A program made the translations under genes and the position numbers. This document shows positions 9,580 to 62,413 of a stretch of 64,000 nt of DNA, piece after piece. Source of the DNA: a virus (taxonomy: Duplodnaviria > Caudoviricetes); IMG/VR virus record IMGVR_UViG_3300043391_000675, positions 26,006 through 90,005 of that record; one strand, written 5' to 3'. Each line of letters starts with the position of its first letter. Positions within the stretch are counted from its first letter, which is position 1. Under the pieces are notes generated by a model, which was given only the letters and a program-made list of their open reading frames with translations, was not told where the DNA came from and searched no databases.

Positions 9580-9584
9580 GCTAA

Positions 9585-47432: not shown

Positions 47433-49013
47433 CTAGTTAACTTGTCTTCCATCTCCCTTTGCATTTCTGCCCTCCCCAGATTTATCTGGCGAATTAGCGG
47501 ATCTTTCTTGATCACGGGCTCTGCTTTGGGTTGCTTGGGCTTTAATTTCTGCGGCTTGGGCTGCAAGATCTACTGGGACATCTCCACCATCTCGTGGAAC
47601 CATTCCCATTCTTACTCTAATTTCATTTGGAGTTATTACCTGGAATCTAAGATATCTTTCATCTATCTTTGATTGGGTGTCAGCATCCGTCAAACTTAAT
47701 TCATTAAATTTAAGTTCTAGGGCATCAGTCATTTCTTGAATTATCTTATTCAATTTCTTTTCTAGGTTTTCCTGTGCTGGGCGACAAACCTGCTCTTTAA
47801 ATGTCTTATCTGCATCTCTAGCAGCAGCTAAATTAATACCTGCTGGAGTACCAATTTTATTAATTGGAACTCTGTGGGCCATTAATATTTCATCTCTATT
47901 TGAGCTTCTGTATTTTTCAAATGAGCCTTCCTGTGCTCCTGCCTCAATTGGCTCCATTTTAAATTCAGTTTTTGAGTCTGGAGAATCTGGAGGAAGTGGA
48001 ATATATAGAGATCTGTGGTTCTTTCCTCTTAGTCCTACCTGGAAAAACTCAAGTAATTTTCTTTCTGATTCTGGTGAAAGCTTTGCGCCTTTTACTGTAA
48101 TAATATATCTTGGTACCGCTTTATTTTCAAAGTAGTCTAGATTATATTTACCAGCAAATTCATTACCAGCCATTGAATTTTGTGCAGCAATAATATCTGG
48201 AATTCCATAATAGTTATTCTTTGGAGTGTACTTCTTTATATGAATAATTTCATTTGGTCTATCTTCTTGACCTGCTATTGGATTAACTGTTTTAGTGTCT
48301 CCAAAGTTTCTAAAATATACCGCCTTGCCATAAAGAAGCTGTATGAATCCGTCTCTGAAGCGTCTTACACGCATTGTCTTTGACGGTATATGTCCTATGT
48401 ACCCTATCTTGCCAGTTGTCGTTCTACCGACCTCCAGATAGCCATTACCAGTGGCTTCGTAGTCAGTGTAGAACTTAACGAGGGTCTCTTTAAATGTTTC
48501 ATCTTCATTGCAATCTTCAAGCCATTGGTGAAGGTCTTGCTTAATTCTATTTAACTTTTTACGAGCTCTTTCTAGCTGCTTCTCGTCTTCAATATCTTCA
48601 AGTGTGTCTGTAGTTTTTTTTGATTCAATAAAGTCAAAACCAAGGCCAACAATATTAGCAACCTTTGCATTTATTGCTGCATAGTTGTATGGAGAAATTT
48701 CATAAATTGTTGAAAGATAATCAAGGTTGTACTCTGGCTGAATTAAGTCAAATGTGGCGTATCCGCTTACTGCCTGTTGATGTTGAAGTTGCTGGCTTAC
48801 TGAGCCATCCTTACCAACAAAAGCTTTTTGAAGATCTCTAGATATTTTTCTTCTAAATGATGGTCCAAGGCCTGAAAGCTTTAATAGTTCTTCTGAGTCT
48901 ATATCAAATGCGTCATCAGTTTTTTGTGTTGTAGGATTATTAAATCTCATCCAGTCAGCAACATTAGATATCTCTACGCTATCTGTAACTGCATCTTCAT
49001 CGTATTCAATCAT
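47433..49013 (-). CDS. Portal protein (HK97 family)
   Basis: DYEATGNGYLEV, EIIHIKKY...YYGIP, YFENKAVP, ILMAHRVP, ITPNEIRVRMG. Confidence 0.93.
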   Translation of the reverse strand: MIEYDEDAVTDSVEISNVADWMRFNNPTTQKTDDAFDIDSEELLKLSGLGPSFRRKISRDLQKAFVGKDGSVSQQLQHQQAVSGYATFDLIQPEYNLDYLSTIYEISPYNYAAINAKVANIVGLGFDFIESKKTTDTLEDIEDEKQLERARKKLNRIKQDLHQWLEDCNEDETFKETLVKFYTDYEATGNGYLEVGRTTTGKIGYIGHIPSKTMRVRRFRDGFIQLLYGKAVYFRNFGDTKTVNPIAGQEDRPNEIIHIKKYTPKNNYYGIPDIIAAQNSMAGNEFAGKYNLDYFENKAVPRYIITVKGAKLSPESERKLLEFFQVGLRGKNHRSLYIPLPPDSPDSKTEFKMEPIEAGAQEGSFEKYRSSNRDEILMAHRVPINKIGTPAGINLAAARDADKTFKEQVCRPAQENLEKKLNKIIQEMTDALELKFNELSLTDADTQSKIDERYLRFQVITPNEIRVRMGMVPRDGGDVPVDLAAQAAEIKAQATQSRARDQERSANSPDKSGEGRNAKGDGRQVN

Positions 49014-49417: not shown

Positions 49418-51181
49418 TTACAGGATTTGGAACACAACCCTGTCTCTAGAGTATGTTGAGACTGACTCTTCTGTCATTGCCATTGACGAACCTTGGCCAA
49501 TAGATAAAGTTTTGCCTATATAAAGGTCATAATGCTCTTGATGGCTAATTAAAGGGTTTGAGTATAGAGCTATATTTTGATAAAGGTTATCATCAAGGAC
49601 ATTGGATCTTACTCCCAAAAGCTGCTTACCATTAAACCAAATTGGGCCAGATATAATGCTAGAGGTTTTTATCAATATATAGTTTGGCTCATCTAGATAT
49701 AAGTAGGAGGATATGTTTGTTGCTGAGGATACATCCTGACCATTTATATAGATATTGCTAATATTAGATTTTGATATCGCTCCGCCTGCCGCCCAAGAAA
49801 AAGATGTCTCTGTTGCGCCAGTCTTATTAAATATTAAGTTTCCGCTAGAAAGAGTTTTTGGAGTAAATATCATTTCAATATTCCGCACATCATTTACTGA
49901 GTCTATAAAGAAGGCTGAAGATTTTGGCCTTATTCCATTATCATAATTTCTAGTTCTAATTGGATAGCTGTTATTTGATACATCAAAATCCCAAGTAGCA
50001 CCAGATGTTGGCTGAGATATTGATAGGTTGCTTCCTCCATTATGGGCAAACATTTTCTTTTCAGAGTAGAAATAGATCTTTAAAGAATACAGCTCTGGAA
50101 TGTAAAGATCTGAATTTGATGAAGCAAATACTATTTTAAAGTATAGAACCTTAGTTGAAGAAAATGCAGACCCCTGAGTGAATCCTGGTATTGAAGACCC
50201 GTTTGAACATATCTGCCAGGGACCTGAGCTAGATACCTCAGATACATACACGGATACTCCTTTAGAGGCAACCCAATCTATCTTTGAAGATACATATTGT
50301 TTTGTAATATTTAGAACTAAATCTTCTACAAACTCTCCAGTTGTAAATCCTGAATTTAAATAAACACTATTGTTTCTTGAATTATATCCTAATGCTGCGT
50401 TGTCATAGATAAGTGATTCCCAAGATACTTGAACTGGATAAACATATCTAGTTTCAATGTCTTGATATTTTTCTGCCCCTCTAAATAGTTCTCCTAGATC
50501 TGGAACTGAAATCTGCTCATCTGTATTTAAAAATAAATTATTATAATGTGACAACACTGCATCTGCAGTAAGTGCGTATCTATAAACTGCTGGACAGTCA
50601 ATTAAAAAATGTTCTCCCGCTGTTGTGGGACCTGAAGATAAAGTTATGCTGGGATTGGTAAAAGATATTGATATTGCTTTAGATGCAACAAGATGGCCGT
50701 CTACATATAGACTCATCGAGTTTACTGAGTACACTCCAACAACATGAATCACCCTATTTGAGTTAGGCACAGAGTAATCAAGTCTTTCTGATTCTAATTT
50801 AAATATTACATTTCCATTTTGCCAATACAGGCCTATACCGTCTATGTCTGCAAATAGTGGGGTTAAAGATGTTAATGTTTTTGGGTGAATCCAAGCTTCA
50901 AGAGTAAAGTCATTGTCGTAGGTTGATGGAGTTGCAAACCCTCCAGTACCAGTAGTTCCAGAAAAATCTTTTGAGATAACAAACTGAATTGATTTAGTGC
51001 TATCTATTTTATTTGAGTGTCTACCACCAGATACTATTGGCATTCCAGATATTTCAATCCCGCCTACATAGGACCCGTTGTTTCCGCATCCAGAAATATC
51101 GTAGGCAATGGTGCCAGAAGTTTCATCGAGCTTCCATAGTCCAGTAGGCGAGTCTTTTATTGTAGAAAGATAGTATGACAT
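49418..51181 (-). CDS. LamG/ConA-like domain virion protein
   Basis: PTGLWKLDETSGTIAYDISG, FTLEAWI, HVVGVY...LYVDG, AVYRYALTAD. Confidence 0.8.
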   Translation of the reverse strand: MSYYLSTIKDSPTGLWKLDETSGTIAYDISGCGNNGSYVGGIEISGMPIVSGGRHSNKIDSTKSIQFVISKDFSGTTGTGGFATPSTYDNDFTLEAWIHPKTLTSLTPLFADIDGIGLYWQNGNVIFKLESERLDYSVPNSNRVIHVVGVYSVNSMSLYVDGHLVASKAISISFTNPSITLSSGPTTAGEHFLIDCPAVYRYALTADAVLSHYNNLFLNTDEQISVPDLGELFRGAEKYQDIETRYVYPVQVSWESLIYDNAALGYNSRNNSVYLNSGFTTGEFVEDLVLNITKQYVSSKIDWVASKGVSVYVSEVSSSGPWQICSNGSSIPGFTQGSAFSSTKVLYFKIVFASSNSDLYIPELYSLKIYFYSEKKMFAHNGGSNLSISQPTSGATWDFDVSNNSYPIRTRNYDNGIRPKSSAFFIDSVNDVRNIEMIFTPKTLSSGNLIFNKTGATETSFSWAAGGAISKSNISNIYINGQDVSSATNISSYLYLDEPNYILIKTSSIISGPIWFNGKQLLGVRSNVLDDNLYQNIALYSNPLISHQEHYDLYIGKTLSIGQGSSMAMTEESVSTYSRDRVVFQIL

Positions 51182-51379: not shown

Positions 51380-51844
51380 TCAACAGTCTAGCTTTTTGTC
51401 AATTCCCAAATTTGATAAGAATCTCTCTGGGTCAAATCTCCAGTTATCTTTGGCAAATGAGGTCATTATCTCCATACAGGTATTCTCATATGCTTGAATT
51501 GAAATTAAAGGCTTTAGGCCTAATAAGGTTTCTGTAACATCTATATAGTTTGTTCTTAAGAATGTTGGATCCCCCGCCTGATTTCTTTTAAACACCTTTT
51601 CATTTATTTTGCCTGTAGGCTCATATAGCCTAACTGTAAGATATTGTTTTGCAAATCCCCAGTCGTTGTACATATTGTATGCTTGTGCTGCCTCTATAGC
51701 ATTTGGGAAGAATATAATTGATCTTGCTGGCTCTTCCCCATCTCTTGCAATTGTAAGCATATAGGCATCGGACTTTTTATTTGCTACAGTCTCAATGTAC
51801 TCTCTAACAACATCGTGATGCTCTTGCTTTAGCTGTCCGCTCAT
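51380..51844 (-). CDS. Hypothetical protein closing the oxygenase operon
   Basis: 154-aa ORF abutting the methyltransferase stop. Confidence 0.7.
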   Translation of the reverse strand: MSGQLKQEHHDVVREYIETVANKKSDAYMLTIARDGEEPARSIIFFPNAIEAAQAYNMYNDWGFAKQYLTVRLYEPTGKINEKVFKRNQAGDPTFLRTNYIDVTETLLGLKPLISIQAYENTCMEIMTSFAKDNWRFDPERFLSNLGIDKKLDC

Positions 51845-52444
51845 TTATGTCCACGCCATCTTAAATTTTTCTCTAAAATCCAAATACGGTATAGCGTATG
51901 GATCTACCCACCAATCTTCATGCCACTCTCTAACAACTAGCTTATAACCAAATGAAGAAAGAATTTCTCTTTGCGCCTCACGCATTCCCTTATTGTTATA
52001 TTCAATTTGAGAGTCATGTTCAAAAGTAATTACAGAAAACCTATACTTGCTTAAAGGAATAGCAAGTAGTCCGTGTAAAGTTAAGTAGGGATTCCCCACA
52101 GAGTTTCCTTCTGGGGTATACCCAGCATCTATGTCAACCTGCAAGTAGTCTATTTGTTTTGGAAAATTATTGTCTTCAAAATAGGAAAGATAATTAAAAT
52201 GTGTTGCGTCTCCCAAAATGCATGGGTTTTTTCTATTTGAAACGAACTCTGCGTGTCTTTCTGGGTCTATTTCAAATGAAACACCGTTCCACTTATAATC
52301 TGTTTCTAGATGATAGGTGTTGCTTCCTTTTTTAGAATCAAATGCGCCTAGCTCTACGTAGTAACCATTTTCTTTATTTTTAAGTAAATCCAGCACAAAT
52401 TTTTCTTGTCCACTATTTCCCTTATACTCCATGATATTCTCCAA
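51845..52444 (-). CDS. FkbM-like SAM-dependent methyltransferase
   Basis: YYVELGAFDSKKGSNTY, IDYLQVDID, ITFEHD; ATG at 52432 may be the true start. Confidence 0.75.
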   Translation of the reverse strand: MENIMEYKGNSGQEKFVLDLLKNKENGYYVELGAFDSKKGSNTYHLETDYKWNGVSFEIDPERHAEFVSNRKNPCILGDATHFNYLSYFEDNNFPKQIDYLQVDIDAGYTPEGNSVGNPYLTLHGLLAIPLSKYRFSVITFEHDSQIEYNNKGMREAQREILSSFGYKLVVREWHEDWWVDPYAIPYLDFREKFKMAWT

Positions 52445-53015
52445 ATAAGTCTTTGTTTAATGATATACCTTTATCATCAACGTGATGTTTTACAAATACT
52501 GTTGATATATATCTAACTACATCATTTTTTACTGGCTTTGTACCATGTAAAATTTTCCCGCCATGAATAACCAGCGATCTACTTTTTGGTTTGTGCACTA
52601 TATTTAAATCAGGATAATCTAATTCACCGCCGCTGTAGTCATCATTATAATAAAGAACAGCACCATAAAATACCTTTTGATTAGAAGCCCTATGACCCTC
52701 ATGATCATCGGTGTGAAGTCCAAGGAAGTCATCCATTTTATATCTTTGTAAATTTATTCCAGTAACATCAACATTGCCAGAAAACAGTGCAGATATTCTA
52801 TTATAAAAATCTAAAAAAATGCTACATGAATTTACAAGTTTTCTATTTAAAACTCTAGAATCCCAAAACTCATATGTTAGATCTTCTTCATGCCACTCAG
52901 AATCATTTCTAAGATTTATAAATTGCATTACCTGATCAAGCTCTTCTTCTGTTATAAAATTTTGTATTTCATAAACTTGATCAGATAACTTTGCAATTTT
53001 ATAGTCTAACATCAA
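52422..53015 (-). CDS. 2OG-Fe(II) oxygenase, prolyl-4-hydroxylase-like (6th of array)
   Basis: HTD, YYNDDYSGGEL, HGTKPVKNDVVR. Confidence 0.9.
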   Translation of the reverse strand: MMLDYKIAKLSDQVYEIQNFITEEELDQVMQFINLRNDSEWHEEDLTYEFWDSRVLNRKLVNSCSIFLDFYNRISALFSGNVDVTGINLQRYKMDDFLGLHTDDHEGHRASNQKVFYGAVLYYNDDYSGGELDYPDLNIVHKPKSRSLVIHGGKILHGTKPVKNDVVRYISTVFVKHHVDDKGISLNKDLFGEYHGV

Positions 53016-53020
53016 CTACA

Positions 53021-53779
53021 TTATTCTTGGTTTTGTTCGTGATAAGCTTTGATGTATTCTTCTGATGGTCCTCCTGGACCTCCAACAACATAACCATCAA
53101 CAAATATGAATCCAGGAGTAATAAACTTATCTCCTTGTTTCATGATATGAACCTGATGCTTGTATGGATCTGTAGATGGGAAAATTAATGCACTACCAGC
53201 TTTTGGCTTTGCAGTAAATGTAACCATGTCTTTGGTTCTTGGATCTAGTGCATCATCTGGTGGTCTAAGGTGACCATTTACTTCTAATCTTAGATCTTCT
53301 GGTCTAATAACAAATGAAATCTCTCCGCCTTCGTAGTCATCGTTCCAGTAAATGATAATTGACCACTCTAAGCTGTTGTCTCCAGCTTGTCTATCGAAGT
53401 GTGCTCCCATTGCACAACCCTCAATATATTTTTGAATACCAACAAATGGTGATACGTTTGGAACACCCTTAAGACCTCTATCAACAATAAAAGATTCTGA
53501 TATATTCTTAATAGCATTTCTAATTGTTGATATGATAAAGTCTACATCTTTTCTTATATCTTCATCTAAATTTTCTACCTCAGAAAGATTAAAGTCCTTT
53601 TTCTTTCCAAAGATGTTACCGTCTCTGCTGCTTGAATTCCAGTTTTTCCATTTTGGAATAACCTTGTGAACTCTTTCATCAGAATCTAGCTTATTTATTA
53701 AATCAATAATTGCTTGTGGATTCTCAATTACATCTGAGTACATGTAAACATTTTCATGTAATTTTTCTTCTAGCTTCAT
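53021..53779 (-). CDS. 2OG-Fe(II) oxygenase, P4H-like (5th)
   Basis: [25 protein letters not shown]. Confidence 0.9.
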   Translation of the reverse strand: MKLEEKLHENVYMYSDVIENPQAIIDLINKLDSDERVHKVIPKWKNWNSSSRDGNIFGKKKDFNLSEVENLDEDIRKDVDFIISTIRNAIKNISESFIVDRGLKGVPNVSPFVGIQKYIEGCAMGAHFDRQAGDNSLEWSIIIYWNDDYEGGEISFVIRPEDLRLEVNGHLRPPDDALDPRTKDMVTFTAKPKAGSALIFPSTDPYKHQVHIMKQGDKFITPGFIFVDGYVVGGPGGPSEEYIKAYHEQNQE

Positions 53780-54522
53780 TAGTCGTTCTCCTCTATTTTG
53801 TATTTATTTCCGTCTAGATCTATCTTATAACCTTCTTTTAATGCATCCTGCCATTCCGATTTAATAACTTCTTGCTCTTCTCTAATCTTTTTCATTTCTG
53901 CATCCCAGGCATCTATTGTTTCTTGAGGATAATCCTCTGGGGCCCGATCATCCCAAAATGATCCTAGTGTGTATCTTATACCAGAAGTTATCATTGTAAC
54001 CTCATGAGTATTATCAAAGCCTCCTGCAAAAGCCGCTAAAGTCCCAGTCTCTGGAATAAGTGTATGGTTTTGTTTATTAAATATTAGCTGTCCGCCTTCA
54101 AACTCATCATTTAAATACAAGAAAGCTGCGTACCTACTTCTTTCAAATGGCCCCGTGTTTCCCTGTAAATCTGTATTGTCTGAGTGTTCTTTTGCGTAAG
54201 CTCCAGGCTCCCATTTTTGAGCATGAAATCCAATCTTATGAATATCTGAAGAAGAGTTTCCATGAACTTCAGCAACTGAATCAATAATCTTATTTTGAAG
54301 TGTAGAGAAAAAATCTGAAGCTAAACCAAATTGTTCTAGCTCCTCGTCACCGTCTTGTGGCAAGACAGAAGAGTATGATTCGTAAAAAGTGATTGGAGTC
54401 CATGACAATTTTTCATTTGCAACTTGAGCCTCTAAAACTTTTATTATTGCAGAAGATTCTTCTTTTGTTAAAAAGTTTTTAAATACTAAAATATCTGCTG
54501 TTAATCTTTCTGAAGTACTCAT
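53779..54522 (-). CDS. 2OG-Fe(II) oxygenase, P4H-like (4th)
   Basis: HSD, YLNDEFEGGQL, HEVTMITSGIR. Confidence 0.9.
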   Translation of the reverse strand: MSTSERLTADILVFKNFLTKEESSAIIKVLEAQVANEKLSWTPITFYESYSSVLPQDGDEELEQFGLASDFFSTLQNKIIDSVAEVHGNSSSDIHKIGFHAQKWEPGAYAKEHSDNTDLQGNTGPFERSRYAAFLYLNDEFEGGQLIFNKQNHTLIPETGTLAAFAGGFDNTHEVTMITSGIRYTLGSFWDDRAPEDYPQETIDAWDAEMKKIREEQEVIKSEWQDALKEGYKIDLDGNKYKIEEND

Positions 54523-55250
54523 TTATTTATATCTCCATCTAGTAGTGTTCTGTAATATTTTTTATTTGGATCTGGCTGGTTTTCTCCAGTATGCTCTAGA
54601 ATCTCCCAGAAAAATGGGCAGGTGTATCTTATGGCACCTTTAATTTCAGTTACTCCATGAATATAATTCATATCTCCTGGAAAGAAATATGCTGCTCCTT
54701 TTTTAGGCTTAAACTGTACATCTTGGAGAGGAAAATATAATTCTCCGCCCTCATAGTCGTCATTTAAATAAAACAGACTTGAGAGGTCATAGTTTGGAAA
54801 ATCATTTGGCAATCCAATATCTGGAAGTTCATGAAGCTCTTTATCTGCATGTGGTTTCTGGAACTGTCCAGGAAGCCAACGAACAATTGTTGTTCCAGTT
54901 GGAGTTACTTTAACCTTATAAAAATCTTCAACAATTGGCTTTAGTCTTTCAAACAAGCCTTGAAGAATAGGTCTAATCTTTGGATCATTCTTATCTAAAG
55001 ACGGGCTTGTGCAAACTCTATCTTTCCAGTAATTAGCATCGTATACCGTTGTACCATTTTCATTAACATGGCTTTCAGTTACATCCCAAATAGTTATTTT
55101 TCTAGCAGCTGCCTCAAGAAAATCTATCTCTTCTTGAGTCATAAAGTTTTCTAGTTCAACTATCATGTCCTTGCCATACCCAAAGAATCCAGAAGGCGTG
55201 AGAGATGGTGTCTTGTATACTACTGAAGCATCCTGATTTGTTGAGTTCAT
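54519..55250 (-). CDS. 2OG-Fe(II) oxygenase, P4H-like (3rd)
   Basis: [25 protein letters not shown]. Confidence 0.9.
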   Translation of the reverse strand: MNSTNQDASVVYKTPSLTPSGFFGYGKDMIVELENFMTQEEIDFLEAAARKITIWDVTESHVNENGTTVYDANYWKDRVCTSPSLDKNDPKIRPILQGLFERLKPIVEDFYKVKVTPTGTTIVRWLPGQFQKPHADKELHELPDIGLPNDFPNYDLSSLFYLNDDYEGGELYFPLQDVQFKPKKGAAYFFPGDMNYIHGVTEIKGAIRYTCPFFWEILEHTGENQPDPNKKYYRTLLDGDINK

Positions 55251-55262
55251 TTTTCTATTATA

Positions 55263-55979
55263 TCATTTCTTGTCTTTAGAGGTAAGATCAGTAATCTTTA
55301 GCTTTAAAGACTTTACCTCGTGACTGCCTAGGCTATTTCCTAAATAGTCTACTGCATCTCTATAAAAATTTGTAAATCCGCCCTTTTTAGTAATTTCGTC
55401 CCAAACTTTTTGTCTTTTTTCTTGTTCTTTTAAATCCATACCTTCAAACACTTTGTCTTTAATTTCAAGCTCGACATTTTGATACTCTTTTAATGATATT
55501 GGAATAAAAGTAGCAACTGGCATTCCAGCTGGAATTTTAATTATAGTATTTGGCCTTGTAATTCTCCAGGCAATAGGGATTGCTTCTTTTAAAACTGAAG
55601 TTGATATTACTGTTGTAAATGGGGTTGCTCCATCAACAAAAAAGTTAGGGGGAACGATTTGTAACATTGAAACGTTTTCAGGTGTATCAAAATAGAATCC
55701 AGAATAAAAACTTATAGTAGCGTTTCCTCTTACTGTTGTGGGAACACCTACTGGGCCTGATAATATGGTTACATGATCTGGGGTTGTATCTGAAATTCCA
55801 TCCCAAATAAACTCAATATCATCTAAAAAAGAAATTGACCAGCCAACTGTATTTGCCAGAGAAACTGGAAAACATTTGTAGGCATGAGCATCTAAAGTAT
55901 CATCCATCCAGTCTCTTTTGACTTTAGTCTGTTCAATTTTAGATCTAGTCTGTTTATTTTTATATACTGTTATTTTCAT
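55263..55979 (-). CDS. DUF6065-like protein
   Basis: RDWMDDTLDAHAYKCFPVSLANTVGW, KIPAGMPVATFIP. Confidence 0.7.
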   Translation of the reverse strand: MKITVYKNKQTRSKIEQTKVKRDWMDDTLDAHAYKCFPVSLANTVGWSISFLDDIEFIWDGISDTTPDHVTILSGPVGVPTTVRGNATISFYSGFYFDTPENVSMLQIVPPNFFVDGATPFTTVISTSVLKEAIPIAWRITRPNTIIKIPAGMPVATFIPISLKEYQNVELEIKDKVFEGMDLKEQEKRQKVWDEITKKGGFTNFYRDAVDYLGNSLGSHEVKSLKLKITDLTSKDKK

Positions 55980-56670
55980 TTACTTCATTGTCCCATTTTG
56001 GATCATACATGTCTGGAGTATGAAATTTTTTACTGTAGTCAAGCATTGTTACTATAGAGTATTTTGTTCCCTTAGTTACCGCTTTTGCCTGATGGGCATA
56101 CATAAAATTAGATGGGAAAACATATAGATCTCCAGCCTTTGGTTTAATGTCTAGATTCTGAAGTCTAAAATAAAGCCCACCATCTTCATAATCATCGTTA
56201 ACATATCCTACAAGAGAAACAACACAATTGTAAGAATACCCATGATCTTGATGCTCCATAAAATGCTGGCTTTCTCCATATTTAATAAAGTTAAAAGCTT
56301 CCCAGTACTTAAGCTCCATAATATTGTGTGCTTTGCAATAATCTACAACTGCTGGATATTGAACATCATATACATCTTGCCACAGAGCTTTTAGCTTTTC
56401 TGCATCTTCGCTTTTGTCTAAAGCAATATCACTTTTTTTAAACTTAATATCTACACAGTCTCTATAGTCTGGCATTAGTTGTTGATAGCCAACGTATGCT
56501 GGCTGGAAAGTATATCTTTTTTCTTTAGTTCCAACTTGTCCAACTGCACCCTCAAGCCTATTAATTATATCAAGGTCTTTTTTTAAGACATCTCTGTATA
56601 CAAATATTCCAGGGGCTAGCTCTTCTTTGCTGCTCCAAGTAGGTGCTGTGCTTTTAGTTGCTGTTGTCAT
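55960..56670 (-). CDS. 2OG-Fe(II) oxygenase, P4H-like (2nd)
   Basis: HQD, YVNDDYEDGGL, HQAKAVTKGTK. Confidence 0.9.
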   Translation of the reverse strand: MTTATKSTAPTWSSKEELAPGIFVYRDVLKKDLDIINRLEGAVGQVGTKEKRYTFQPAYVGYQQLMPDYRDCVDIKFKKSDIALDKSEDAEKLKALWQDVYDVQYPAVVDYCKAHNIMELKYWEAFNFIKYGESQHFMEHQDHGYSYNCVVSLVGYVNDDYEDGGLYFRLQNLDIKPKAGDLYVFPSNFMYAHQAKAVTKGTKYSIVTMLDYSKKFHTPDMYDPKWDNEVNENNSI

Positions 56671-57440
56671 TTATAATCCCTCTTTGTCCAAACTTTTGAT
56701 TTATATACTCCACCGTCAGGCTGACGATAAAAATTTGCATTTTCAACTAATCTGTCTTGCATTTCTTTTATTTTTAAATATTCAACATCGTGATCCCAAT
56801 CTTCTCTTTTAAATGGAAGAATCTGTAAGAATGGCGTTCCTTTTGGAATAGTGCCTTCCCAGTCTTTTGCAATAAAAAACGGAAATGTTCCAAGTAAGTG
56901 AACTTTATCGTTGTCAACAACACCACTTGTATTTAAAAATGGTAAATCAAATCTATTCATTGGTGTCATAAATAATGCACTATAGCCTTCTGGAACTTGA
57001 ATTCCCCATTCTGGGTACCATGCAAAATGATCTTCGTAATATCCTATAGGAGATGGGAATTGTTCCATAGGAGTTCTTTCTGTTACAAAACTAATATGCT
57101 TTTTGTCTTTTACTTCTACAGAAATCTTTCCATTTTTATTTTTTGAAAATACTAAATCGCATGGAGTGCTTAAAACATATCCAGTCATAAATGCATCTAA
57201 TATTGCTGGGCAGGCTTTCCATGTAGGAATCTTGCCAAAATCTTTTGGGTCCCCTTCTTTTGAAACAGGACATACCTCTTTTGTGGCCTTATAGTATTCA
57301 CCATTTGGCATCTTTGCAAATCTATCAGCCTCTTTATACCATGCAGGTATGCTTTGCTGTGTTGGTTTTGGCACTGATGGGCTAAACTTGTTTAGCCATG
57401 GCCTAAACGATTGAAATAATATTTTAATAGGTTTTGCCAT
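56667..57440 (-). CDS. DUF6065/dUTPase-fold-like protein (likely start 57440)
   Basis: [50 protein letters not shown]. Confidence 0.65.
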
Positions 57441-58131
57441 TCTCTTTGTCATGATAAAGATCATTGTAGTCCATCATAATAACAACAGCATACTTTGTGC
57501 CAGATAATAAATTTAAAGATGCATGCTCATAAACAAAATTAGAAGGGAAAAGAATTATGTCTCCTGCCTTTGGTTTTAAGACAAGGTCGTGTCGTGGAAA
57601 TTCAATTTCCCCGCCCTCATAATCGTCATTTAAATAAACAACTGCAGAAACTGTACATGTGTAATATGGACCATGATCAGCATGAATTTTAAAAAATTCT
57701 CCTGGTAGATATTTAACAAAGTTAAATGCTTCTTTGTAATTAATGTTAAAATTCCAAACGGACTCATAATGTCTTAGTGATTTATTTAATCCAACATCAA
57801 CAATATCATAGCATTCTCTTAAAACATCACTATCTGCAAGATAGTTACCAAGCTGATCTCTTTTAAACTTTAAATCATAACAATTTCTAGCATGACTAGT
57901 TGGCTCGGCTTTAGCATTAACGGTTGCTCCGTGCCACTTTATTCCACGTTTATCCAAAGATATTTCTTCTTCAAGCATGTTGATTAATCTTTGGCAATCT
58001 TCTTTACTAATTGCATTTCTATAAAGATTTATTCCATATTCAAGATTTTCAACAATCATGCCATTGTCAATTTTTTTTGGTTCAACTCTTGAAGTTGTTT
58101 TTTCAATTCGTGGTAGGTCATACCATTCCAT
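57424..58131 (-). CDS. 2OG-Fe(II) oxygenase, P4H-like (1st)
   Basis: [25 protein letters not shown]. Confidence 0.9.
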
Positions 58132-58193
58132 AGTATCTCATTTCTACTATAACATCTTATCATACTATTCTAGAAAAGAAAAGTATATTTTAT

Positions 58194-59240
58194 TTAGTAT
58201 CCTCTAAAGTATGGGAAGTATGGTCCGCCGCCAAATGATGGGAAGAATGGGAAGTATGGTCCGAATCCTGGGAAGAACGGTCCGAATCCTGGGAAGAACG
58301 GTGCCTTAAATCCTGGGAAGTATGGTCCGAATGTTGGTGGGAAGAACGGTGGGAAGAATGGGAAGTACGGTGGGAAGAATGGGAAGAACGGTGGGAAGAA
58401 CGGTGGGAAGAACGGTGGGAAGAATGGTGGGAAGAATGGGAAGAACGGTGGGAAGAACGGTGGGAAGAACGGTGGGAAGAATGGTGGGAAGAATGGGAAG
58501 AATGGTGGGAAGAATGGGAAGAACGGTGGGAAGAACGGTGGGAAGAACGGTGGGAAGAATGGTGGGAAGAATGGGAAGAACGGTGGGAAGAACGGGAAGA
58601 ATGGTGGGAAGAAAGGCGGGAAGAACGGGAAGAACGGTGCTATGGTAGTAATATTAGCACTATTATTTGAAGCCAAAGAAGTTCCATTAGCATTAGTTGC
58701 TGTAGCTGAATATGTTTGAGAAGTATTTGCTGTATCAGCAATAACTACAGAAGTTGCATTAGCCGCTAAATTTCCAGATGAAGATCCATCTGATCCAGTA
58801 ACATTATGCCGTGTTAATGCAGATCCTCCAGAAGCTCCTATTTGCCAGTTAATTGTATTTTGATTAACACCAGCAGTTGCAGTAAGTGATTGTGGCGCTT
58901 GAGGAACTGTGCTTACTGTAACTGCTGATGAAGCAATTGAAACAAGAGAGGTTCCAGCAGCATTTGATGCTGTCATTGTAAATGTTGGATTTGCTGTTGA
59001 TGCAAAGCCAGTTACAGTAATTGGAGATGATGATCCAGTTGCTGTTTGTCCAGTGCTAGCTGTTATAGTATAAGATGTTGCTGGTGGAGATGCTGCTGGC
59101 AAAGAGAAAGTTAATATTACGGCTCCGTTGTTGTAAGGCCGATCTGTTCCGACGTTTGTAACACTATCAATTATTGGTCTGCTTGGCTCCAAAAAATTGT
59201 CTTGCGCCGAAGATTTTCTACCTATTCTTTTGTTTGCCAT
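58194..59240 (-). CDS. Two FN3 domains plus C-terminal (PPFF)n-FRGY tail
   Basis: FN3 motifs TFTMTASNAAGTS, VPQAPQSLTA, YSATATNANGTS; about 147-aa Pro/Phe tail. Confidence 0.88.
   Translation of the reverse strand: MANKRIGRKSSAQDNFLEPSRPIIDSVTNVGTDRPYNNGAVILTFSLPAASPPATSYTITASTGQTATGSSSPITVTGFASTANPTFTMTASNAAGTSLVSIASSAVTVSTVPQAPQSLTATAGVNQNTINWQIGASGGSALTRHNVTGSDGSSSGNLAANATSVVIADTANTSQTYSATATNANGTSLASNNSANITTIAPFFPFFPPFFPPFFPFFPPFFPFFPPFFPPFFPPFFPPFFPFFPPFFPFFPPFFPPFFPPFFPPFFPFFPPFFPPFFPPFFPPFFPFFPPYFPFFPPFFPPTFGPYFPGFKAPFFPGFGPFFPGFGPYFPFFPSFGGGPYFPYFRGY
58197..58637 (-). repeat. In-frame 12-nt/9-nt tandem repeat encoding PPFF/PFF (array 2)
   Basis: Same CCACCGTTCTTC and CCATTCTTC units as array 1; distal PYF/PGF variants. 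Confidence 0.95.
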
Positions 59241-59269: not shown

Positions 59270-62200
59270 TTACGCTGTTAGATCTCCAGCTAGTAACCAA
59301 GTGTCTGTTGCAACCTTAGTCAATGTTGCTGATGAATATGTTGTTCTTAATTTTAATCCTGGTGTAGCTTGGATTGTAACTCCACCTGCTCCAGCAAAAC
59401 TTGCAGCAGTTCCTGCTGATTGATAAAAATCAATTGAAGTTCCAACTGGGAATGCTGTTGTTGCATTTGTTGGCACAGTTACAACATGTGTTCCTGATAT
59501 TGGAATTAATTGATCTCTCAATGTAAGTCCACCTGTTGAAAGGTTATATGCTGCAGATATTGTTGTTCCAATTGTTGTAAGTGATGGGACACCAGCTTTT
59601 GTTTGAGTACCATCTGTAAATGCTACTCCAGATGCTGCAACTGTTACTGTACCAGTAAATGTAGGTGAAGCAAGCGGTGCGAATCCTGAAATGCTTGCGC
59701 CTGCTGGTATGGTAACTGTTCCTGTAAATGTTGGTGAATCTGTTGGTGCTAATACGGAATATGTTGTTCCATCGTTTGTAAACTCCCATTTATCAGAAGA
59801 CTCGTTCCATCGAATCTGAACTGCATTTGAATCTCCACGCATAACTCTTATTCCTGAATTCTCTGTTGGAGCTCCAGTGGTAAAATTGCTATTTAGATCA
59901 ATGATGTTGTCAGCCAAAGAAATTGTTTCTGTATTAACGCTTGTGGTTGTTCCGTTTACTGTAAAGTTTCCAGTAACAACTAGGTTTCCATTTACTTCTG
60001 CGTTATCGTTAAGATAAACTTTTCCTGTACCATTTCCTGATAGAGATAGGTCTGTATTTAATGACTTGCTTGCTAATGTATCTGACTTTAGACCATTGCT
60101 AAAGCTAATTCCATTACCGTCAGCACTTGAGAAATTAGCTCCTGCTTCTACAACTAGAGGGCCTTTAATATTAACAGAACCAGTTCCTGTTGGGTCTAGC
60201 TCAATATTACCGCTTCCGCTTGTTCTTAATCCTAGGTTTTCATCAGGATCAGCAGAAATAACGATTGCTCCTGATTCATCCTGAATAACTTTCTGACCAT
60301 TAACATAAAGTGATCCTGGACCTACGTAAATATCTTTCCACATCTTTGTAGGAGAACCTAGATCGTAAACGTTATCTGTACCTGGAACTATGCTTCCGCC
60401 TGCTGTTACTGTTGGAAGAACTACTGTGCCAGTAAATGTTGGAGAAGCAAGATTTGCTTTTAATCCAAATGAGGTGCTAAGCCCATCAATTTTTGATTGA
60501 GCAATTGCTGCTGATGGATTTATATCAGCATTTACAATTGTGTCTGGTGCAATCTTTCCAGTTGTTACTGCATCATTTGCAATTTTTCCAGTTGTTATTG
60601 CTGAATCTGCAATTTTTCCAGTTGTTATTGCTAAATCTGCAACATCTGCTGTTGCAACCGCTCCATCAGCAATCATTCCAGATGTAACTGTTCCTGCTGG
60701 AAGTGTTACTGTGCCAGTAAATGTTGGAGAAGCTAGTGGTGCTTTAAGATCAATCTGTGTTTGAATGTTTGAGCTTGCTCCATTAAGAAGATCTAGCTCA
60801 ACTGATGAAATATTTCCAATGCTTGTTGTTGCAGGAAGAGATACCGTTCCTGTAAATGTTGGTGAAGCAAGTGGGGCGTATGTAGTTGCTGCTGTTGCTG
60901 AAGCCAACTTAGCATCAATCTGTGTTTGAATGTTTGAGTTTGCTCCGTTAAGAAGCTCTATCTCTTCTGCTGAGATATTTCCAATGCTTGTTGTTGCAGG
61001 AAGAGATACTGTTCCAGTAAATGTTGGTGCTGCAAGTGGGGCGTATGTAGTTGCTGCTGTTGCTGAAGCCAACTTAGCATCAATCTGAGTCTGTACGTTT
61101 GCTGTAACTCCGTTAAGAAGCTCTAGCTCAGTTGATGAAACCAAGCCTATGCTTGTTGTTGCAGGAAGAGATACTGTTCCAGTAAATGTTGGTGAAGCAG
61201 AAGGTGCCTTAGCATCAATCTGAGTCTGTACGTTTGCTGTAACTCCGTTTATCAGCTGCATTTCATCTGCAGAAACATTTCCAATGCTTGTAGTTATTGG
61301 AAGAGAAAATGTTCCAGTAAATGTTGGGGCATCAATTGTTGGAGCATTAATTGTTTTATTAGTTAGAGTTTGAGTTTCAGTTGTTCCAACAACTGTTCCT
61401 GGAAGAGTTTTTCCTAAAACTGTGCTTACTGTTAAAACGTCAATATTGTTTATCTTAACAGCCTTGTCTCCAGGAATATTAATATTTTCTGAAATATCCC
61501 ATGCTGATTTTGCAAGGCTATACTTGATTGATTTATCAGTTGTTCCCTTTAGAATTATTCCGCCTTGATCTGCAGCGGCATCAGTTGGTGTTGCTGTTTG
61601 TCCTAAAACAATATCTTTATCTTGAACTGTAAGTGTGGTTGAGTTAATTGTTGATGTTGATCCATTTACTGTCAAGTTTCCAGAAAGTGTTAGGTTAACT
61701 GCAGTAGCGTCTCCAGTAAGTGCTGGTGAATTTAATGGGGCTTTTAAAGCAATTGCTGATAATGCTGCAAGTGAGACTGGCTTATTTTCATCTGAAGTAT
61801 TATCAACATTAGACAAGCCAACATCTGATTTAGTAATTCCAGTTGGGGTATTTATTGCTGGAGATGTAAGAGTCTTATTTGTAAGAGTTTGTGTTCCTGT
61901 TGTAGTCGCAAGTATGCTTGTGTCTGCAATGCCATGTACTGCTGTTGTGTCTGCTTCGTGTGTTGCAATTGCTGCTGATATAGCAGCTGTCGCTGATATT
62001 TCTCGCCAGTTACCATTTGTGCTTGCAGGGGAAGAAGCGAGTACATATGTTGTACCATTATCTGATTGAATTGCAATATCGCCAGGTTCTGCGGTTAAAG
62101 CTAAACGTGCAGCTTGGTTTGCTGCTGAAGAAACTGTTACTTTAGCAAGTGGAGGTAGCTGTGCTGAAGGGATAAATCCTGATGAGTCTAGTGAAGCGAC

Positions 62201-62413
62201 TCCGTTTGCAACACCTTTTGTACTTAAAAGAATATAGTCGTCTACTGTTTGAGAGAGAGCATAACTTAGTGAATTCCAAGCGGTGCTTCCATCTCCAAAT
62301 TTAAATGTATTAGTATCTGTTTCAATACCAATTTCTCCAGCTGCTAGGGTTGGATTTGCTGCGACCCATTGAGCTTCTGTGCCTCTTCTTAACTGTAATC
62401 TTACTGTTGCCAT
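59270..62413 (-). CDS. Tail fibre with Mtd/hyaluronidase-type N-terminal domain and internal repeats
   Basis: RLQLRRGTEAQWVAANPTLAAGEIGIETDT..FKFGDG; four ~46-55-aa PTFTGTVSLPATTSIG...QTQIDAK repeats; ITTGKIAD repeats. Confidence 0.82.
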   Translation of the reverse strand: MATVRLQLRRGTEAQWVAANPTLAAGEIGIETDTNTFKFGDGSTAWNSLSYALSQTVDDYILLSTKGVANGVASLDSSGFIPSAQLPPLAKVTVSSAANQAARLALTAEPGDIAIQSDNGTTYVLASSPASTNGNWREISATAAISAAIATHEADTTAVHGIADTSILATTTGTQTLTNKTLTSPAINTPTGITKSDVGLSNVDNTSDENKPVSLAALSAIALKAPLNSPALTGDATAVNLTLSGNLTVNGSTSTINSTTLTVQDKDIVLGQTATPTDAAADQGGIILKGTTDKSIKYSLAKSAWDISENINIPGDKAVKINNIDVLTVSTVLGKTLPGTVVGTTETQTLTNKTINAPTIDAPTFTGTFSLPITTSIGNVSADEMQLINGVTANVQTQIDAKAPSASPTFTGTVSLPATTSIGLVSSTELELLNGVTANVQTQIDAKLASATAATTYAPLAAPTFTGTVSLPATTSIGNISAEEIELLNGANSNIQTQIDAKLASATAATTYAPLASPTFTGTVSLPATTSIGNISSVELDLLNGASSNIQTQIDLKAPLASPTFTGTVTLPAGTVTSGMIADGAVATADVADLAITTGKIADSAITTGKIANDAVTTGKIAPDTIVNADINPSAAIAQSKIDGLSTSFGLKANLASPTFTGTVVLPTVTAGGSIVPGTDNVYDLGSPTKMWKDIYVGPGSLYVNGQKVIQDESGAIVISADPDENLGLRTSGSGNIELDPTGTGSVNIKGPLVVEAGANFSSADGNGISFSNGLKSDTLASKSLNTDLSLSGNGTGKVYLNDNAEVNGNLVVTGNFTVNGTTTSVNTETISLADNIIDLNSNFTTGAPTENSGIRVMRGDSNAVQIRWNESSDKWEFTNDGTTYSVLAPTDSPTFTGTVTIPAGASISGFAPLASPTFTGTVTVAASGVAFTDGTQTKAGVPSLTTIGTTISAAYNLSTGGLTLRDQLIPISGTHVVTVPTNATTAFPVGTSIDFYQSAGTAASFAGAGGVTIQATPGLKLRTTYSSATLTKVATDTWLLAGDLTA

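Follow-up and report, generated by a model that had tools for sequence, protein, structure and literature searches.

Proteins with Pro/Phe repeat tails are linked to arrays of prolyl-hydroxylase-type oxygenases in an uncultured lake phage and other phages

The window analysed here, a stretch of 64,000 nt, comes from an uncultured lake phage. It encodes a protein ending in a long proline and phenylalanine repeat (PF tail), followed by a block of six prolyl 4-hydroxylase (P4H)-type oxygenase genes, two DUF6065-type genes and one methyltransferase-fold gene, all on the minus strand (Table 1). The locus raises the question of what the oxygenases act on, and whether the PF tail is their substrate. 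The first-pass annotation had located the Pro/Phe-tailed gene 62 nt upstream of the enzymes, which the ORFs and their coordinates bear out (stop 58194, next start 58131); a terminator-like site was looked for in this gap and none was found. Its placement of the block among virion genes also agrees with the Pfam and ORF annotation of the window, which shows the Mtd_N fibre upstream and the Laminin_G_3 protein and portal downstream. The location among late virion genes and the gap free of a terminator-like site both speak for the tail as a substrate.

Table 1. Features of the PF-tail and oxygenase locus and of the second PF-tailed protein (positions in the window).
Feature	Position	Strand	Basis and remarks
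Tail fibre, 1047 aa, Mtd_N domain	59270-62413	-	PF18454 E 5e-16; ...SPTFTGTV... units repeated; adjoins PF gene upstream
PF-tail protein, 348 aa	58194-59240	-	ORF and translation; FN3-like part, Pro/Phe repeat, cap
Pro/Phe repeat tail, tandem 12-nt and 9-nt units, candidate substrate	58197-58640	-	Tandem repeats; pure PF run 58341-58640
ox1, P4H-type Fe(II)/2OG oxygenase, first gene after PF gene	57424-58131	-	PF13640 E 6e-11
dufA, DUF6065-like, dUTPase/dCTP-deaminase fold	56667-57464	-	phrog_7084 E 4e-35
ox2, P4H-type oxygenase	55960-56670	-	PF13640 E 2e-11; triad kept
dufB, DUF6065 protein	55263-55979	-	PF19541 E 1e-30; phrog_7084 weaker than for dufA
ox3, P4H-type oxygenase	54519-55250	-	PF13640 E 7e-9
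ox4, P4H-type oxygenase	53779-54522	-	PF13640 E 1e-8
ox5, P4H-type oxygenase	53021-53779	-	PF13640 E 1e-8; ~27-aa insert after YxNDDYEGG strand
ox6, P4H-type oxygenase, shortest of six	52422-53015	-	PF13640 E 2e-6, 28.9 bits vs cut-off 27
Class I SAM-dependent methyltransferase-fold protein, last enzyme of block	51845-52444	-	AF2 fold; syntenic in relatives
Conserved 154-aa protein (g154)	51380-51844	-	No family match; after methyltransferase in all close relatives
Laminin_G_3 protein	49418-51181	-	Downstream of block
Portal	47433-49013	-	Downstream of block
Second PF-tailed protein, 1238 aa, Cys-rich repeats, distal tail/fibre protein	19800-23516	-	Translation; PF runs 19851-20075

The 348-aa PF protein consists of an FN3-like N-terminal part of ~200 aa and a 147-aa Pro/Phe repeat with a Gly/aromatic cap ending in ...FRGY. 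The last 147 residues comprise 68 Phe, 58 Pro, 10 Gly, 6 Tyr and five others, arranged in 17 PPFF, 12 PFF, four PYF units and one PPYF unit. The protein matched no Pfam or PHROG family, and the FN3 identity of its N-terminal part is a lead taken from an Atlas neighbour (0.95, 180 shared features). The same N-terminal family is found in 119 of 135 PF proteins from other contigs; altogether, the PF tail occurs on at least eight N-terminal families, and small Cys-rich caps are often present at the C-terminus of PF proteins. The 1238-aa protein encoded elsewhere in the window, which the first-pass annotation had overlooked as a PF-tailed protein, carries PF repeats in its C-terminal ~90 aa and has the same ...FRGY end. 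As this second tail is located ~35 kb from the oxygenase array, adjacency to the array is not required, which counts against the tail as a substrate.

The near-perfect tandem repetition of the DNA and its variable copy number could suggest a non-functional, slippage-prone repeat that is read through by accident, but this is hardly credible. The DNA units of 12 nt (CCA CCR TTC TTC) and 9 nt (CCA TTC TTC) are all multiples of three in length, and the differences between them are synonymous (CCA/CCG). Among close relatives the tail varies from ~94 to 185 aa, and it remains in frame throughout, always reaching the conserved Gly/aromatic cap and C-terminal Tyr. Accidental read-through is also hard to reconcile with a tail that is joined to several N-terminal families and that closes two proteins of this genome with one common end. 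The Pro/Phe repeat is neither chance nor artefact.

All six oxygenases exceeded the gathering score for PF13640 (2OG-FeII_Oxy_3), and the alignment showed that each keeps the HxD...H motif, the Y-x-N-D-[DE]-[YF] strand and a K/R ten residues past the distal His (H149, D151, H202 and K212 in ox1), which confirms the earlier description of six P4H-like 2OG-Fe(II) enzymes. That the enzymes are of P4H type, with an intact iron triad and 2OG-binding basic residue, is in favour of the tail as a substrate. The profile of ox1 orthologs matched best the P4H of Bacillus anthracis (3itq/5hv0, E 4e-6), and also LH3, P4H-TM and P3H1. The closest enzymes of solved structure are thus hydroxylases of peptidyl proline and lysine, which work on substrates with Pro-rich repeats. 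The B. anthracis enzyme, a collagen-like-peptide prolyl hydroxylase, is like ox1 a soluble bacterial-type P4H and is its best solved sequence relative, but the resemblance is weak and confined to the catalytic core. The natural substrate of the B. anthracis P4H is uncertain.

Both DUF6065-like genes of the first-pass annotation were recovered, dufB by PF19541 and dufA, which has no Pfam match, by phrog_7084, a family that dufB also matches. The two proteins are distant paralogues (13-19% identity). In the Foldseek and VIA-align comparison of the AF2 model of dufA (pLDDT 82), the top fold matches were all dUTPase or dCTP deaminase (Z 8.5-5.4, next 3.3). Judged by profile alignment, dufA is homologous to gp43 of phage Syn9 (hhalign 96%, E 1.8e-9). 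It keeps a G-V-V-D-x-D stretch resembling dUTPase motif III; the Asp residues of this stretch are absent from dufB in the alignment and are therefore not a feature of the family.

The last enzyme of the block had no Pfam, NCBIfam or PDB sequence match. Its AF2 model (pLDDT 78) gave 195 PDB fold matches at E ≤ 0.001 and, among the matches listed, every one was a methyltransferase. The label methyltransferase thus holds by virtue of the class I SAM-methyltransferase fold of the model, while the FkbM affiliation proposed earlier is a lead from a neighbouring Atlas cluster in which 52% of members carry PF05050.

The gene order fibre, PF protein, ox1, dufA, ox2, dufB, ox3 and onwards is kept in every dufA relative with enough sequence to show it. 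A PF ORF is present in 74 of 80 dufA-relative loci, and the loci without it begin within or just past the PF ORF. In these loci, oxygenases lie downstream of 71 of the 72 PF genes having at least 4 kb of downstream sequence, and ox1 is the most constant neighbour. A second sample consisted of PF genes picked solely by the PPFF DNA pattern. Here, a same-strand oxygenase was found within 4 kb downstream in 39/47 cases and upstream in 1/27, and a fibre-like gene preceded the PF gene in 24/27 loci. The first-pass annotation had proposed asking whether PF-tail genes in phage genomes co-occur with, and lie next to, genes for 2OG-FeII_Oxy_3 and DUF6065 proteins; the association proved strong and directional. 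At the level of viral records, PF13640 is present in 43/49 and 30/37, i.e., 73/86 with PF tails, mostly in 5-11 copies, and in 0/9 control records from the same scan, with (GGKK)n or other repeats (Fisher p = 4e-7), where the PF records are partly interrelated, so that the counts overstate independence, and the control set is small. The adjacency recurs in complete phage genomes of 202-268 kb, in which no dufA-type gene and, in a search run without a positive control, no homologue of the portal of this phage were detected. A further instance follows a PF protein (L029 type) whose N-terminal part is unrelated.

The PF-oxygenase association holds in one direction: in six cultured marine phages, Syn9 among them, 2-11 such oxygenases occur in the absence of any PF repeat, which implies other substrates there. 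Of the two patterns that the first-pass annotation had named as contrary to its proposal, oxygenase-rich phages without the repeat are thus common, and the enzymes cannot be regarded as generally specific to PF tails; most PF-tail records do carry oxygenases. Fibre-proximal regions may merely be the usual seat of such islands, the Syn9 array likewise lying after fibre genes. Since tails and enzymes occur together across many phages, the tails offer a candidate substrate, open to testing, for oxygenases of phages that have lacked an assigned role since 2010. Our literature search found no publication on this PF-tail and oxygenase system.

The closest known system is the Syn9 tandem dioxygenase array gp41-gp54 (Iyer, Abhiman, de Souza and Aravind, NAR 2010, PMC2938197), for which secondary-metabolite synthesis was proposed and no protein substrate was named. 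Both arrays contain tandem, distinct classical 2OG dioxygenases and a dUTPase-fold protein with a conserved Cys, with functions that are predicted, and both are located directly downstream of tail-fibre genes on the same strand. Unlike the lake phage, Syn9 has no Pro/Phe repeat anywhere, has Gly-rich low-complexity proteins before the array, and includes two tryptophan halogenases and a JmjC/MINA-type enzyme in it; DUF6065 (PF19541) was not detected in Syn9. Chlorovirus PBCV-1 provides a precedent in favour of the tail as a substrate, since the prolines of short Pro-rich tandem repeats (-Pro-Ala-Pro-Lys-) are hydroxylated by its P4H (PMC3634087). It shares with our block a virus-encoded P4H-family enzyme and Pro-rich tandem repeats, but the PBCV-1 P4H is a single enzyme of a eukaryotic virus acting on hydrophilic repeats. 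It neither belongs to a set of enzymes nor has a partner with a dUTPase fold, and its gene is not reported to lie next to that of a substrate.

The content of the arrays varies greatly between phage lineages. In three dereplicated lineages, genes for PF11397 Skp1-type GlcNAc transferases are located 508-2733 nt downstream of PF genes; arrays of other lineages also contain a Gb3_synth-type glycosyltransferase, Sulfotransfer_2 with APS kinase, methyltransferases, an Asp/Asn beta-hydroxylase and radical-SAM/SPASM proteins. Such additions, which have hydroxylated proteins or peptides as their targets, favour the tail-substrate reading. In the Skp1 pathway of Dictyostelium and Toxoplasma, a cytoplasmic P4H (PhyA) makes hydroxyproline, and the hydroxylated Skp1 is the substrate of Gnt1, a GlcNAc transferase of the PF11397 family (PMC3515798). 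There, the target is a single Pro of a folded regulator in oxygen sensing, whereas here the candidate target is a virion-protein polymer; moreover, PF11397 is absent from the lake phage genome. In the L029-type lineage, the PF gene is followed by an Asp/Asn hydroxylase, a P4H, a sulfotransferase, an APS kinase and a methyltransferase-like gene. This set matches bacterial operons (beta-hydroxylase, PhyH-methyltransferase, sulfotransferase and PAPS synthetase) predicted by Iyer et al. to modify co-encoded tail-collar or collagen-like proteins (PMC2938197). What they share is the order of events, hydroxylation before decoration, on a repetitive or fibre-type protein encoded alongside; the operons differ from PF blocks in being cellular and in having Gly-rich collagen-like or T4 gp12-type tail-collar substrates, and are predicted, as PF blocks are. 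The sequence of hydroxylation and decoration proposed in the first-pass annotation is therefore consistent with the arrays of other lineages, but the lake phage genome contains no glycosyltransferase of the tested families.

From the linkage we infer, giving it about an even chance, that the PF tails are hydroxylated by the block enzymes before virion assembly. The block would then be a virion-protein tailoring unit serving two fibre-region proteins, the small FN3-like one and the large Cys-rich distal fibre protein, both ending in a very hydrophobic Pro/Phe polymer. Late in infection, the small PF gene and the six oxygenase genes are probably transcribed together, and the enzymes would hydroxylate tail residues in the host cytoplasm, most likely at proline C3/C4 and possibly at Phe C-beta. 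The methyltransferase may then cap part of the new hydroxyl groups in this genome, a step that glycosyltransferases, or a sulfotransferase fed by APS kinase, might perform in other lineages. The product could be a soluble, stiff, decorated polyproline-type rod or a sticky fibre tip, in the manner of hydroxyproline-rich glycoproteins. The two DUF6065 proteins with their dUTPase fold, which constantly accompany the oxygenases, could serve as a scaffold, as a substrate holder or in a nucleotide-dependent step. Its monotony tells against the tail as a substrate, because six different enzymes would find few chemically distinct sites in a sequence of Pro and Phe alone. The RiPP-like product also suggested in the first-pass annotation found no support, since each tail forms the end of a folded protein (200 to >1100 aa) and nothing resembling a leader or protease arrangement was seen.

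There is a smaller but appreciable chance that the array is a fibre-proximal accessory island directed at a small-molecule or peptide secondary metabolite or at host proteins, the PF gene being no more than a regular neighbour where the fibre module ends. The homologous Syn9 array, with gp43 as the dufA homologue in the same place and no PF repeat, fits this explanation, as do the five further marine phages, the metabolite synthesis argued for by Iyer et al. (2010) and the highly variable array content, which is typical of accessory islands. A mere neighbour, however, would hardly be expected to accompany the array in phages whose backbones are probably unrelated, or behind unrelated N-terminal domains, and the enzymes are present in most PF records. 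Furthermore, Pfam and PHROG profile searches of the block showed no gene for an NRPS, a precursor peptide or export, and the Skp1-type GlcNAc transferase and Asp/Asn hydroxylase of other lineages are protein-directed families. Rather improbable is modification of fibre-region proteins outside the repeat, at Asp, Asn, Lys or Pro of the FN3-like or Cys-rich domains or of large fibres, with the PF tail acting as a spacer, oligomerisation element or sticky tip. Known Asp/Asn beta-hydroxylases act on Cys-rich EGF-type domains; such enzymes are present in some arrays, Cys-rich caps are frequent on PF proteins, Cys-rich repeats abound in the second PF protein, and the arrays are flanked by fibre genes. 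Nevertheless, while N-terminal domains and caps differ, the feature that goes with the arrays is the PF repeat, and Pro-rich repeats are typical targets of P4H-type enzymes.

We consider it very unlikely that the block acts on nucleotides or DNA, with the dUTPase-fold proteins binding or processing a nucleotide that the oxygenases and methyltransferase modify. The fold of dufA and its G-V-V-D-x-D stretch are compatible with such a role, and halovirus homologues of dufA adjoin thymidylate synthase, DNA polymerase and adenylate kinase genes. This neighbourhood and the fold hint at nucleotide chemistry, against the tail as a substrate, and leave room for a nucleotide-related role of the DUF6065 proteins; DNA repair was earlier suggested for cyanophage 2OG enzymes (PMC3037559). 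On the other hand, dufB lacks the motif-III-like Asp residues, and PF13640 enzymes are distinct from the nucleic-acid-acting AlkB and TET/JBP enzymes, their nearest solved relatives being protein hydroxylases. Finally, the block is located in the virion module and not in the replication module, and the co-occurring enzymes of other lineages are protein- or glycan-directed.

Two proteins encoded on the 90,005-bp source contig, which is estimated to be 83% complete, end in a Pro/Phe repeat (PF tail), and a six-frame scan of the whole contig found exactly these two. All genes of the region are on the minus strand. The final 147 residues of the 348-aa protein consist of 68 Phe, 58 Pro, 10 Gly, 6 Tyr and five others, arranged as 17 PPFF, 12 PFF, 4 PYF and 1 PPYF units. 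The corresponding DNA is built of 12-nt and 9-nt tandem units, every length being divisible by three, and varies mainly by synonymous CCA/CCG changes. The first ~200 aa of this protein had no Pfam or PHROG match in profile searches; they lie nearest to viral FN3 clusters in Atlas, a language-model feature search (0.95, 180 shared features), and the FN3 label is a lead. The 1238-aa protein, encoded about 35 kb away from the enzyme block, is rich in Cys-rich repeats, ends in ~90 residues of PFF/PPFF units and shares the C-terminus ...FRGY with the 348-aa protein. About six of its Cys-rich repeats, each of ~90 aa with the motifs W-x-x-W-S-x-C and R-T-R-T-R, precede the PF tail. As the two tails are found on different proteins, the PF tail is a portable C-terminal module of fibre-region proteins.

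Positions of the features discussed in the text. Coordinates refer to the 64,000-nt window unless preceded by a locus or record name
Feature	Position	Strand	Description
Fibre	upstream of the PF gene	-	1047 aa, Mtd_N domain
PF protein	58194-59240	-	ORF, 348 aa
Enzyme block	51845-58131	-	includes ox1-ox6
dufA	56667-57464	-	DUF6065-type
dufB	55263-55979	-	DUF6065-type
Methyltransferase-fold protein	51845-52444	-	final gene of the block; AF2 model, pLDDT 78, pTM 0.81
Laminin_G_3 protein	downstream of the block	-	
Portal	47433-49013	-	downstream of the block
Second PF protein	19800-23516	-	translation, 1238 aa, distal end of the tail module
tRNA-Arg (TCT)	1926-1998	-	
tRNA-Met (CAT)	2357-2431	-	
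PF13640 genes outside the window	G000:C1:17493-17744 and 6837-7103		same contig, away from the array
L029 array	L029:972-9900		on an 88-kb record (G021)
GSHPx-like genes	L032:8184-9119, L034:2206-3159, L071:10457-11356		thioredoxin fold; nine more ORFs
~150-aa family	L104:472-939, L025:1873-2322, L166:268-711		15 more examples
HSTV-2 gene 40	L214, KC117376.1 28132-29001		dufA-type homologue
Syn9 gp36, gp38, gp39	L222:6856-7806, 8344-10328		between fibres and array

In relatives with a dufA of at least 83% identity, tail length varies between ~94 and 185 aa; the reading frame is kept throughout and leads in every case to a conserved Gly/aromatic cap with a terminal Tyr. Across all loci, the PF region is preceded by a ~200-aa domain, or by ~385 or ~480 aa when this domain is repeated, and is followed by a short cap whose type differs among loci: ...GGWGGY, ...FK or a small Cys-rich knot. 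The N-terminal family of the window protein is common to 119 of 135 PF proteins, and at least seven other N-terminal types bear the tail. The RiPP-like product proposed by the first-pass annotation does not agree with these results: a RiPP precursor is a short leader-core peptide freed by a protease, but here the repeat closes folded proteins 348 and 1238 aa long and occurs with at least eight N-terminal families. Pfam and PHROG searches of the block genes found no protease or transporter, and radical-SAM/SPASM genes are confined to some other PF lineages.

The enzyme block begins 62 nt after the PF gene, and its genes overlap or abut. No terminator-like site was predicted between the PF gene and ox1; predictions were overall no richer than in shuffled sequence, so the promoter and terminator scan says nothing firm on transcription units. 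Six block genes (ox1-ox6) match PF13640 with 28.9-45.2 bits against a gathering cut-off of 27. The iron triad H149, D151 and H202 is invariant in the six paralogues and in 19 ox1 orthologues; all six also keep the Y-x-N-D-[DE]-[YF] strand and K or R at His+10. In P4H, a basic residue about 10 positions after the distal His binds the C5 carboxylate of 2OG. Pairwise identity among the six is only 20-35%, which shows that they are different enzymes and not recent copies. A profile of the 19 ox1 orthologues, compared with all PDB sequences, retrieved the Bacillus anthracis P4H (E 4e-6), LH3, transmembrane P4H and prolyl 3-hydroxylase 1. At the sequence level, the solved relatives of ox1 are peptidyl hydroxylases of collagen-type substrates, which marks the family and not the activity. 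A complex of ox1 and a 60-aa PF segment, predicted without controls, scored 0.00 and counts neither way. Two more PF13640 genes lie outside the window.

The model of the last block protein matched 195 PDB chains at E<=0.001, all of those listed being methyltransferases, and an invariant V-E-x-G stretch resembles motif I. The modelled protein has a class I SAM-dependent methyltransferase fold; its sequence matched no family and no PDB sequence. It is the sole candidate for a second-step enzyme in the window's genome. The FkbM profile PF05050 had no match at E<=5 with hmmscan, nor at E<=10 in a six-frame search of the contig, and the label comes only from a neighbouring Atlas cluster with PF05050 in 52% of its members (score 0.97). 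The structural description in the first-pass annotation was thus accurate in every detail, with the FkbM and FN3 labels standing as leads.

Of the two DUF6065-type proteins, dufB matches PF19541 (E 1e-30, 107.5 bits, cut-off 26.6), and dufA has no Pfam match even at E 5. Both match phrog_7084 (dufA 4e-35, dufB 4e-5), and they are 13-19% identical to each other, with invariant C, G, D, P and Y residues in common. A search of PDB sequences found no match for dufA. The top Foldseek matches of its AF2 model (pLDDT 82) were all dUTPase or dCTP deaminase; likewise, the top 21 matches in VIA-align belong to these enzymes, with Z 8.5-5.4 over 110-128 residues, the next one having Z 3.3. The model of dufA carries the dUTPase/dCTP deaminase beta-barrel fold. 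At the site of dUTPase motif III, a by-eye comparison without structural superposition shows G-V-V-D-N-D in dufA and I-S-T-S in dufB and its orthologues, so nucleotide hydrolysis is not a conserved property of the family. The best 120 DUF6065 homologues in the database are all metagenomic proteins, and a single-protein scan for a cellular context of DUF6065 revealed no relative. The search with alignment A6 of DUF6065-type proteins retrieved only six short contigs, binned in MAGs of five unrelated phyla. These contigs (L208-L213) come from MAGs of Chitinophagaceae, Acidimicrobiaceae, Flavobacteriales, Luteolibacter and Beijerinckiaceae from Lake Mendota and Delaware Bay, and they are probably phage contigs of freshwater or estuarine habitat mis-binned into bacterial MAGs.

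The linkage of PF tails with oxygenases was analysed in two independent IMG/VR samples, one of dufA relatives (the best 80 of 260) and one of at least 119 contigs selected solely by a degenerate (PPFF)3 DNA pattern. Throughout the best 80 dufA relatives the order is fibre, PF protein, ox1, dufA, ox2, dufB and ox3 onward. A PF ORF is present in 74 of these 80 loci, and the rest begin inside or after the PF gene; oxygenases lie downstream of 71 of the 72 PF genes that have at least 4 kb of downstream sequence. In the pattern sample, among the matches listed, 47 PF genes have 4 kb or more of sequence downstream; 39 of them are followed by an oxygenase on the same strand within 4 kb, and 34 by a DUF6065-type gene. 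On the upstream side, again among the matches listed, an oxygenase was found in 1 of 27 cases and a fibre-like gene in 24 of 27. A whole-record search detected PF13640 in 43 of 49 PF contigs, mostly in 6-11 copies; the six contigs without it are fragments, three of which end right after the PF gene.

A second scan used the reversed pattern, which encodes F-[FL]-P-P in another register, with strands checked. It added 37 further PF records (PF13640 in 30) and nine records with non-PF repeats, mostly (GGKK)n, none of which contains PF13640. Pooled, PF13640 occurs in 73 of 86 PF records against 0 of 9 controls (Fisher p = 4e-7), the PF records being mutually related and the controls few. The proposed co-occurrence and adjacency of PF tails with PF13640 and DUF6065 genes is therefore borne out, both by these records and by the downstream against upstream counts (39/47 versus 1/27). 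The linkage runs one way: a PF tail implies an array, but the converse does not hold. Five cultured marine phages carry 2-11 PF13640 genes scattered among replication genes, and no (PPFF)2 motif was found in them or in the Synechococcus phage Syn9. Such an asymmetry would follow if the tail depends on the enzymes and the enzymes act on different substrates in other phages.

Three complete jumbo-phage genomes are PF-positive, namely G068 (267,766 bp), G085 (202,043 bp, DTR) and G093 (210,302 bp, DTR), with loci L232, L254 and L271. Their PF-tail genes encode 111-160 aa, end in ...PPVFK or ...PPGFK and lie beside fibre genes, and each genome has 7-10 PF13640 genes. In the large PF genomes the PF gene adjoins fibre genes, with oxygenases and a dufB-type gene within 2-10 kb. 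No homologue of the window phage's portal was detected at E<=0.001 in five PF records (the three complete and two other large ones) in a search that had no positive control, and a dufA-type gene is present in one of the five. Sequence comparison suggests that the PF-array linkage recurs on different phage backbones; given the lack of a positive control in the portal search, the suggestion draws on genome size and the missing dufA-type genes as well.

The arrays of other lineages extend the set of tailoring genes. In locus L029, the PF protein has an unrelated N-terminus, and the genes after it encode two dufA-type proteins, Sulfotransfer_2, an Asp/Asn beta-hydroxylase, a methyltransferase-like protein, a single P4H-type oxygenase and an APS kinase. 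APS kinase makes the sulfate donor, and judged by its gene content L029 is a putative variant of the system that combines hydroxylation with sulfation. Among 133 dereplicated ORFs that lie downstream of PF genes and had not been classified before, a Pfam census yielded 12 glutathione-peroxidase-like (GSHPx-like) proteins, seven further 2OG_Oxy_3 and five 2OG_Oxy_5 proteins, epimerases and short-chain dehydrogenases, three PF11397 'GlcNAc' glycosyltransferases, two Asp/Asn hydroxylases, two radical-SAM proteins with SPASM, two sulfotransferases and one each of TauD, PhyH and APS kinase. The distances downstream of the PF gene are 508-2733 nt for PF11397, 345 nt for a Gb3_synth-type glycosyltransferase and 766 nt for radical-SAM/SPASM. 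The PF11397 matches in these lineages have E 1e-25 to 1e-38, and this is the family of Gnt1, which glycosylates the Skp1 hydroxyproline made by a P4H. The repertoire is what 'hydroxylate a protein, then decorate the hydroxyl' would predict. The hydroxyproline-rich glycoprotein pathway needs a Hyp glycosyltransferase; family searches of the window's own genome found none of PF11397, GT2 or GSHPx, whereas other PF lineages have PF11397 and Gb3_synth-type glycosyltransferases within 0.3-2.7 kb of the PF gene. The glycosylation pathway of Skp1 hydroxyproline is described in PMC3515798.

In several lineages the GSHPx-like genes with a thioredoxin fold stand straight after the PF gene. Their products might assist in redox reactions, much as the PDI subunit does in collagen P4H, or guard against uncoupled turnover of the oxygenases. 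In many lineages the PF gene and ox1 are separated by a member of a ~150-aa family without Pfam match, which starts 31-68 nt after the PF gene and is not present in the window.

The closest known arrangement is that of Syn9, where ten dioxygenases (gp41-gp54) stand straight after the tail-fibre genes (Iyer et al. 2010, PMC2938197). Its gp43 is a homologue of dufA (hhalign 96%, E 1.8e-9; BLASTP E 9e-8). Tandem distinct dioxygenases (20-35% identity), an invariant-Cys dUTPase-fold protein and a position after fibre genes are found here as well. The Syn9 array also contains tryptophan halogenases and a JmjC/MINA-type member, for which Pfam and PHROG searches gave no match in the ten block genes. 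The components and their arrangement were described for Syn9 in 2010, and, given Syn9, an array of oxygenases and a dUTPase-fold protein beside fibres is already known, though unexplained. The novelty lies in the Pro/Phe polymer, a candidate substrate that recurs and is co-inherited, and in the wide range of tailoring genes around it. PBCV-1 is a known case of a virus that hydroxylates Pro-rich repeats (PMC3634087), and Iyer et al. predicted operons of hydroxylases and sulfotransferases acting on co-encoded tail-collar or collagen-like proteins (PMC2938197). Arrays of 2OG oxygenases in aquatic phages have been ascribed to DNA repair, 2OG/nitrogen signalling and secondary metabolism, none of which was experimentally tested (PMC3037559, PMC2938197). 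Our literature search found no paper that names DUF6065, reports such a Pro/Phe repeat or connects phage 2OG oxygenases with hydroxylation of fibres. In Syn9, gp36, gp38 and gp39 contain runs of 7-10 Gly, and these Gly-rich proteins could be the counterpart of PF tails as candidate low-complexity substrates.

We give an even chance to the reading in which the block tailors virion proteins and the PF tails are its substrate. The main competitor is an island with another target that the PF gene merely adjoins. The array of Syn9, which follows fibre genes and has no PF repeat, speaks for it, and the asymmetry between tails and arrays fits such a fibre-proximal island too; with tails nevertheless implying arrays, we regard it as rather unlikely. 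Modification of the same proteins at sites outside the PF tail seems improbable; in loci of the L020/L029/L122 type the N-terminus is unrelated to that of the window protein, yet an enzyme array also follows.

Nucleotide chemistry as the function of the block is a very improbable alternative. Homologues of dufA with 26-28% identity occur in 49 haloarchaeal tailed viruses, and the one in Halorubrum virus HSTV-2 adjoins thymidylate synthase and DNA polymerase, but the Asp stretch of motif III is absent from dufB and its orthologues. In HSTV-2 and the 48 other haloviruses, the dufA-type (phrog_7084) genes neighbour thymidylate synthase, DNA polymerase and adenylate kinase, and no oxygenase is annotated around them, so that the dUTPase-fold family has a different setting there. 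It is mainly this haloviral context, which leaves room for a nucleotide-linked role of the family, that keeps us from rating protein tailoring higher. The in-frame, variable tails with their caps exclude accidental read-through of a DNA repeat, and the probability of a non-functional repeat is negligible.

The fuller form of the tailoring reading, which we hold tentatively at slightly below even, is that lake and estuarine phages would make a type of post-translationally tailored virion polymer not known before. Their batteries of P4H-type oxygenases would hydroxylate several positions of the PF repeats of fibres, and these would later be capped by methylation, glycosylation or sulfation, depending on the lineage, which would give a stiff or adhesive tip, the counterpart in prokaryotic viruses of hydroxyproline-rich glycoproteins. 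As the repeat is co-encoded with the enzymes and tracks them, a direct experiment with peptide, enzyme and mass spectrometry can be made. Few unexplained gene sets of aquatic phages are as common as tandem 2OG oxygenase arrays, and the tails would be their first natural substrate. If modified, the tails would be the first structural polymer of bacteriophages to carry hydroxylation and, in some lineages, glycosylation or sulfation; they would also newly count among the factors that determine adsorption and host range in freshwater phages, which are abundant. The enzymes would then be regio-diverse peptide hydroxylases, and the dUTPase-fold DUF6065 proteins would have a role in protein tailoring. 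If the tails are unmodified, their tight linkage with oxygenases still calls for explanation.

Searches of 50,697 phage records with the block (megablast) and with the PF protein and dufB (tblastn) gave no match, the BLAST low-complexity filter hiding the repeat; at that sensitivity, the module has no cultured relative in these records. The portal is 56-58% identical to those of large Streptomyces phages such as BillNye and Yaboi, with genomes of 126-134 kb, although the G+C content of the contig is only ~37%. By portal similarity, the host may be actinobacterial, e.g., a low-GC freshwater member of Actinomycetota. Two tRNA genes, for Arg and Met, are present in the window.
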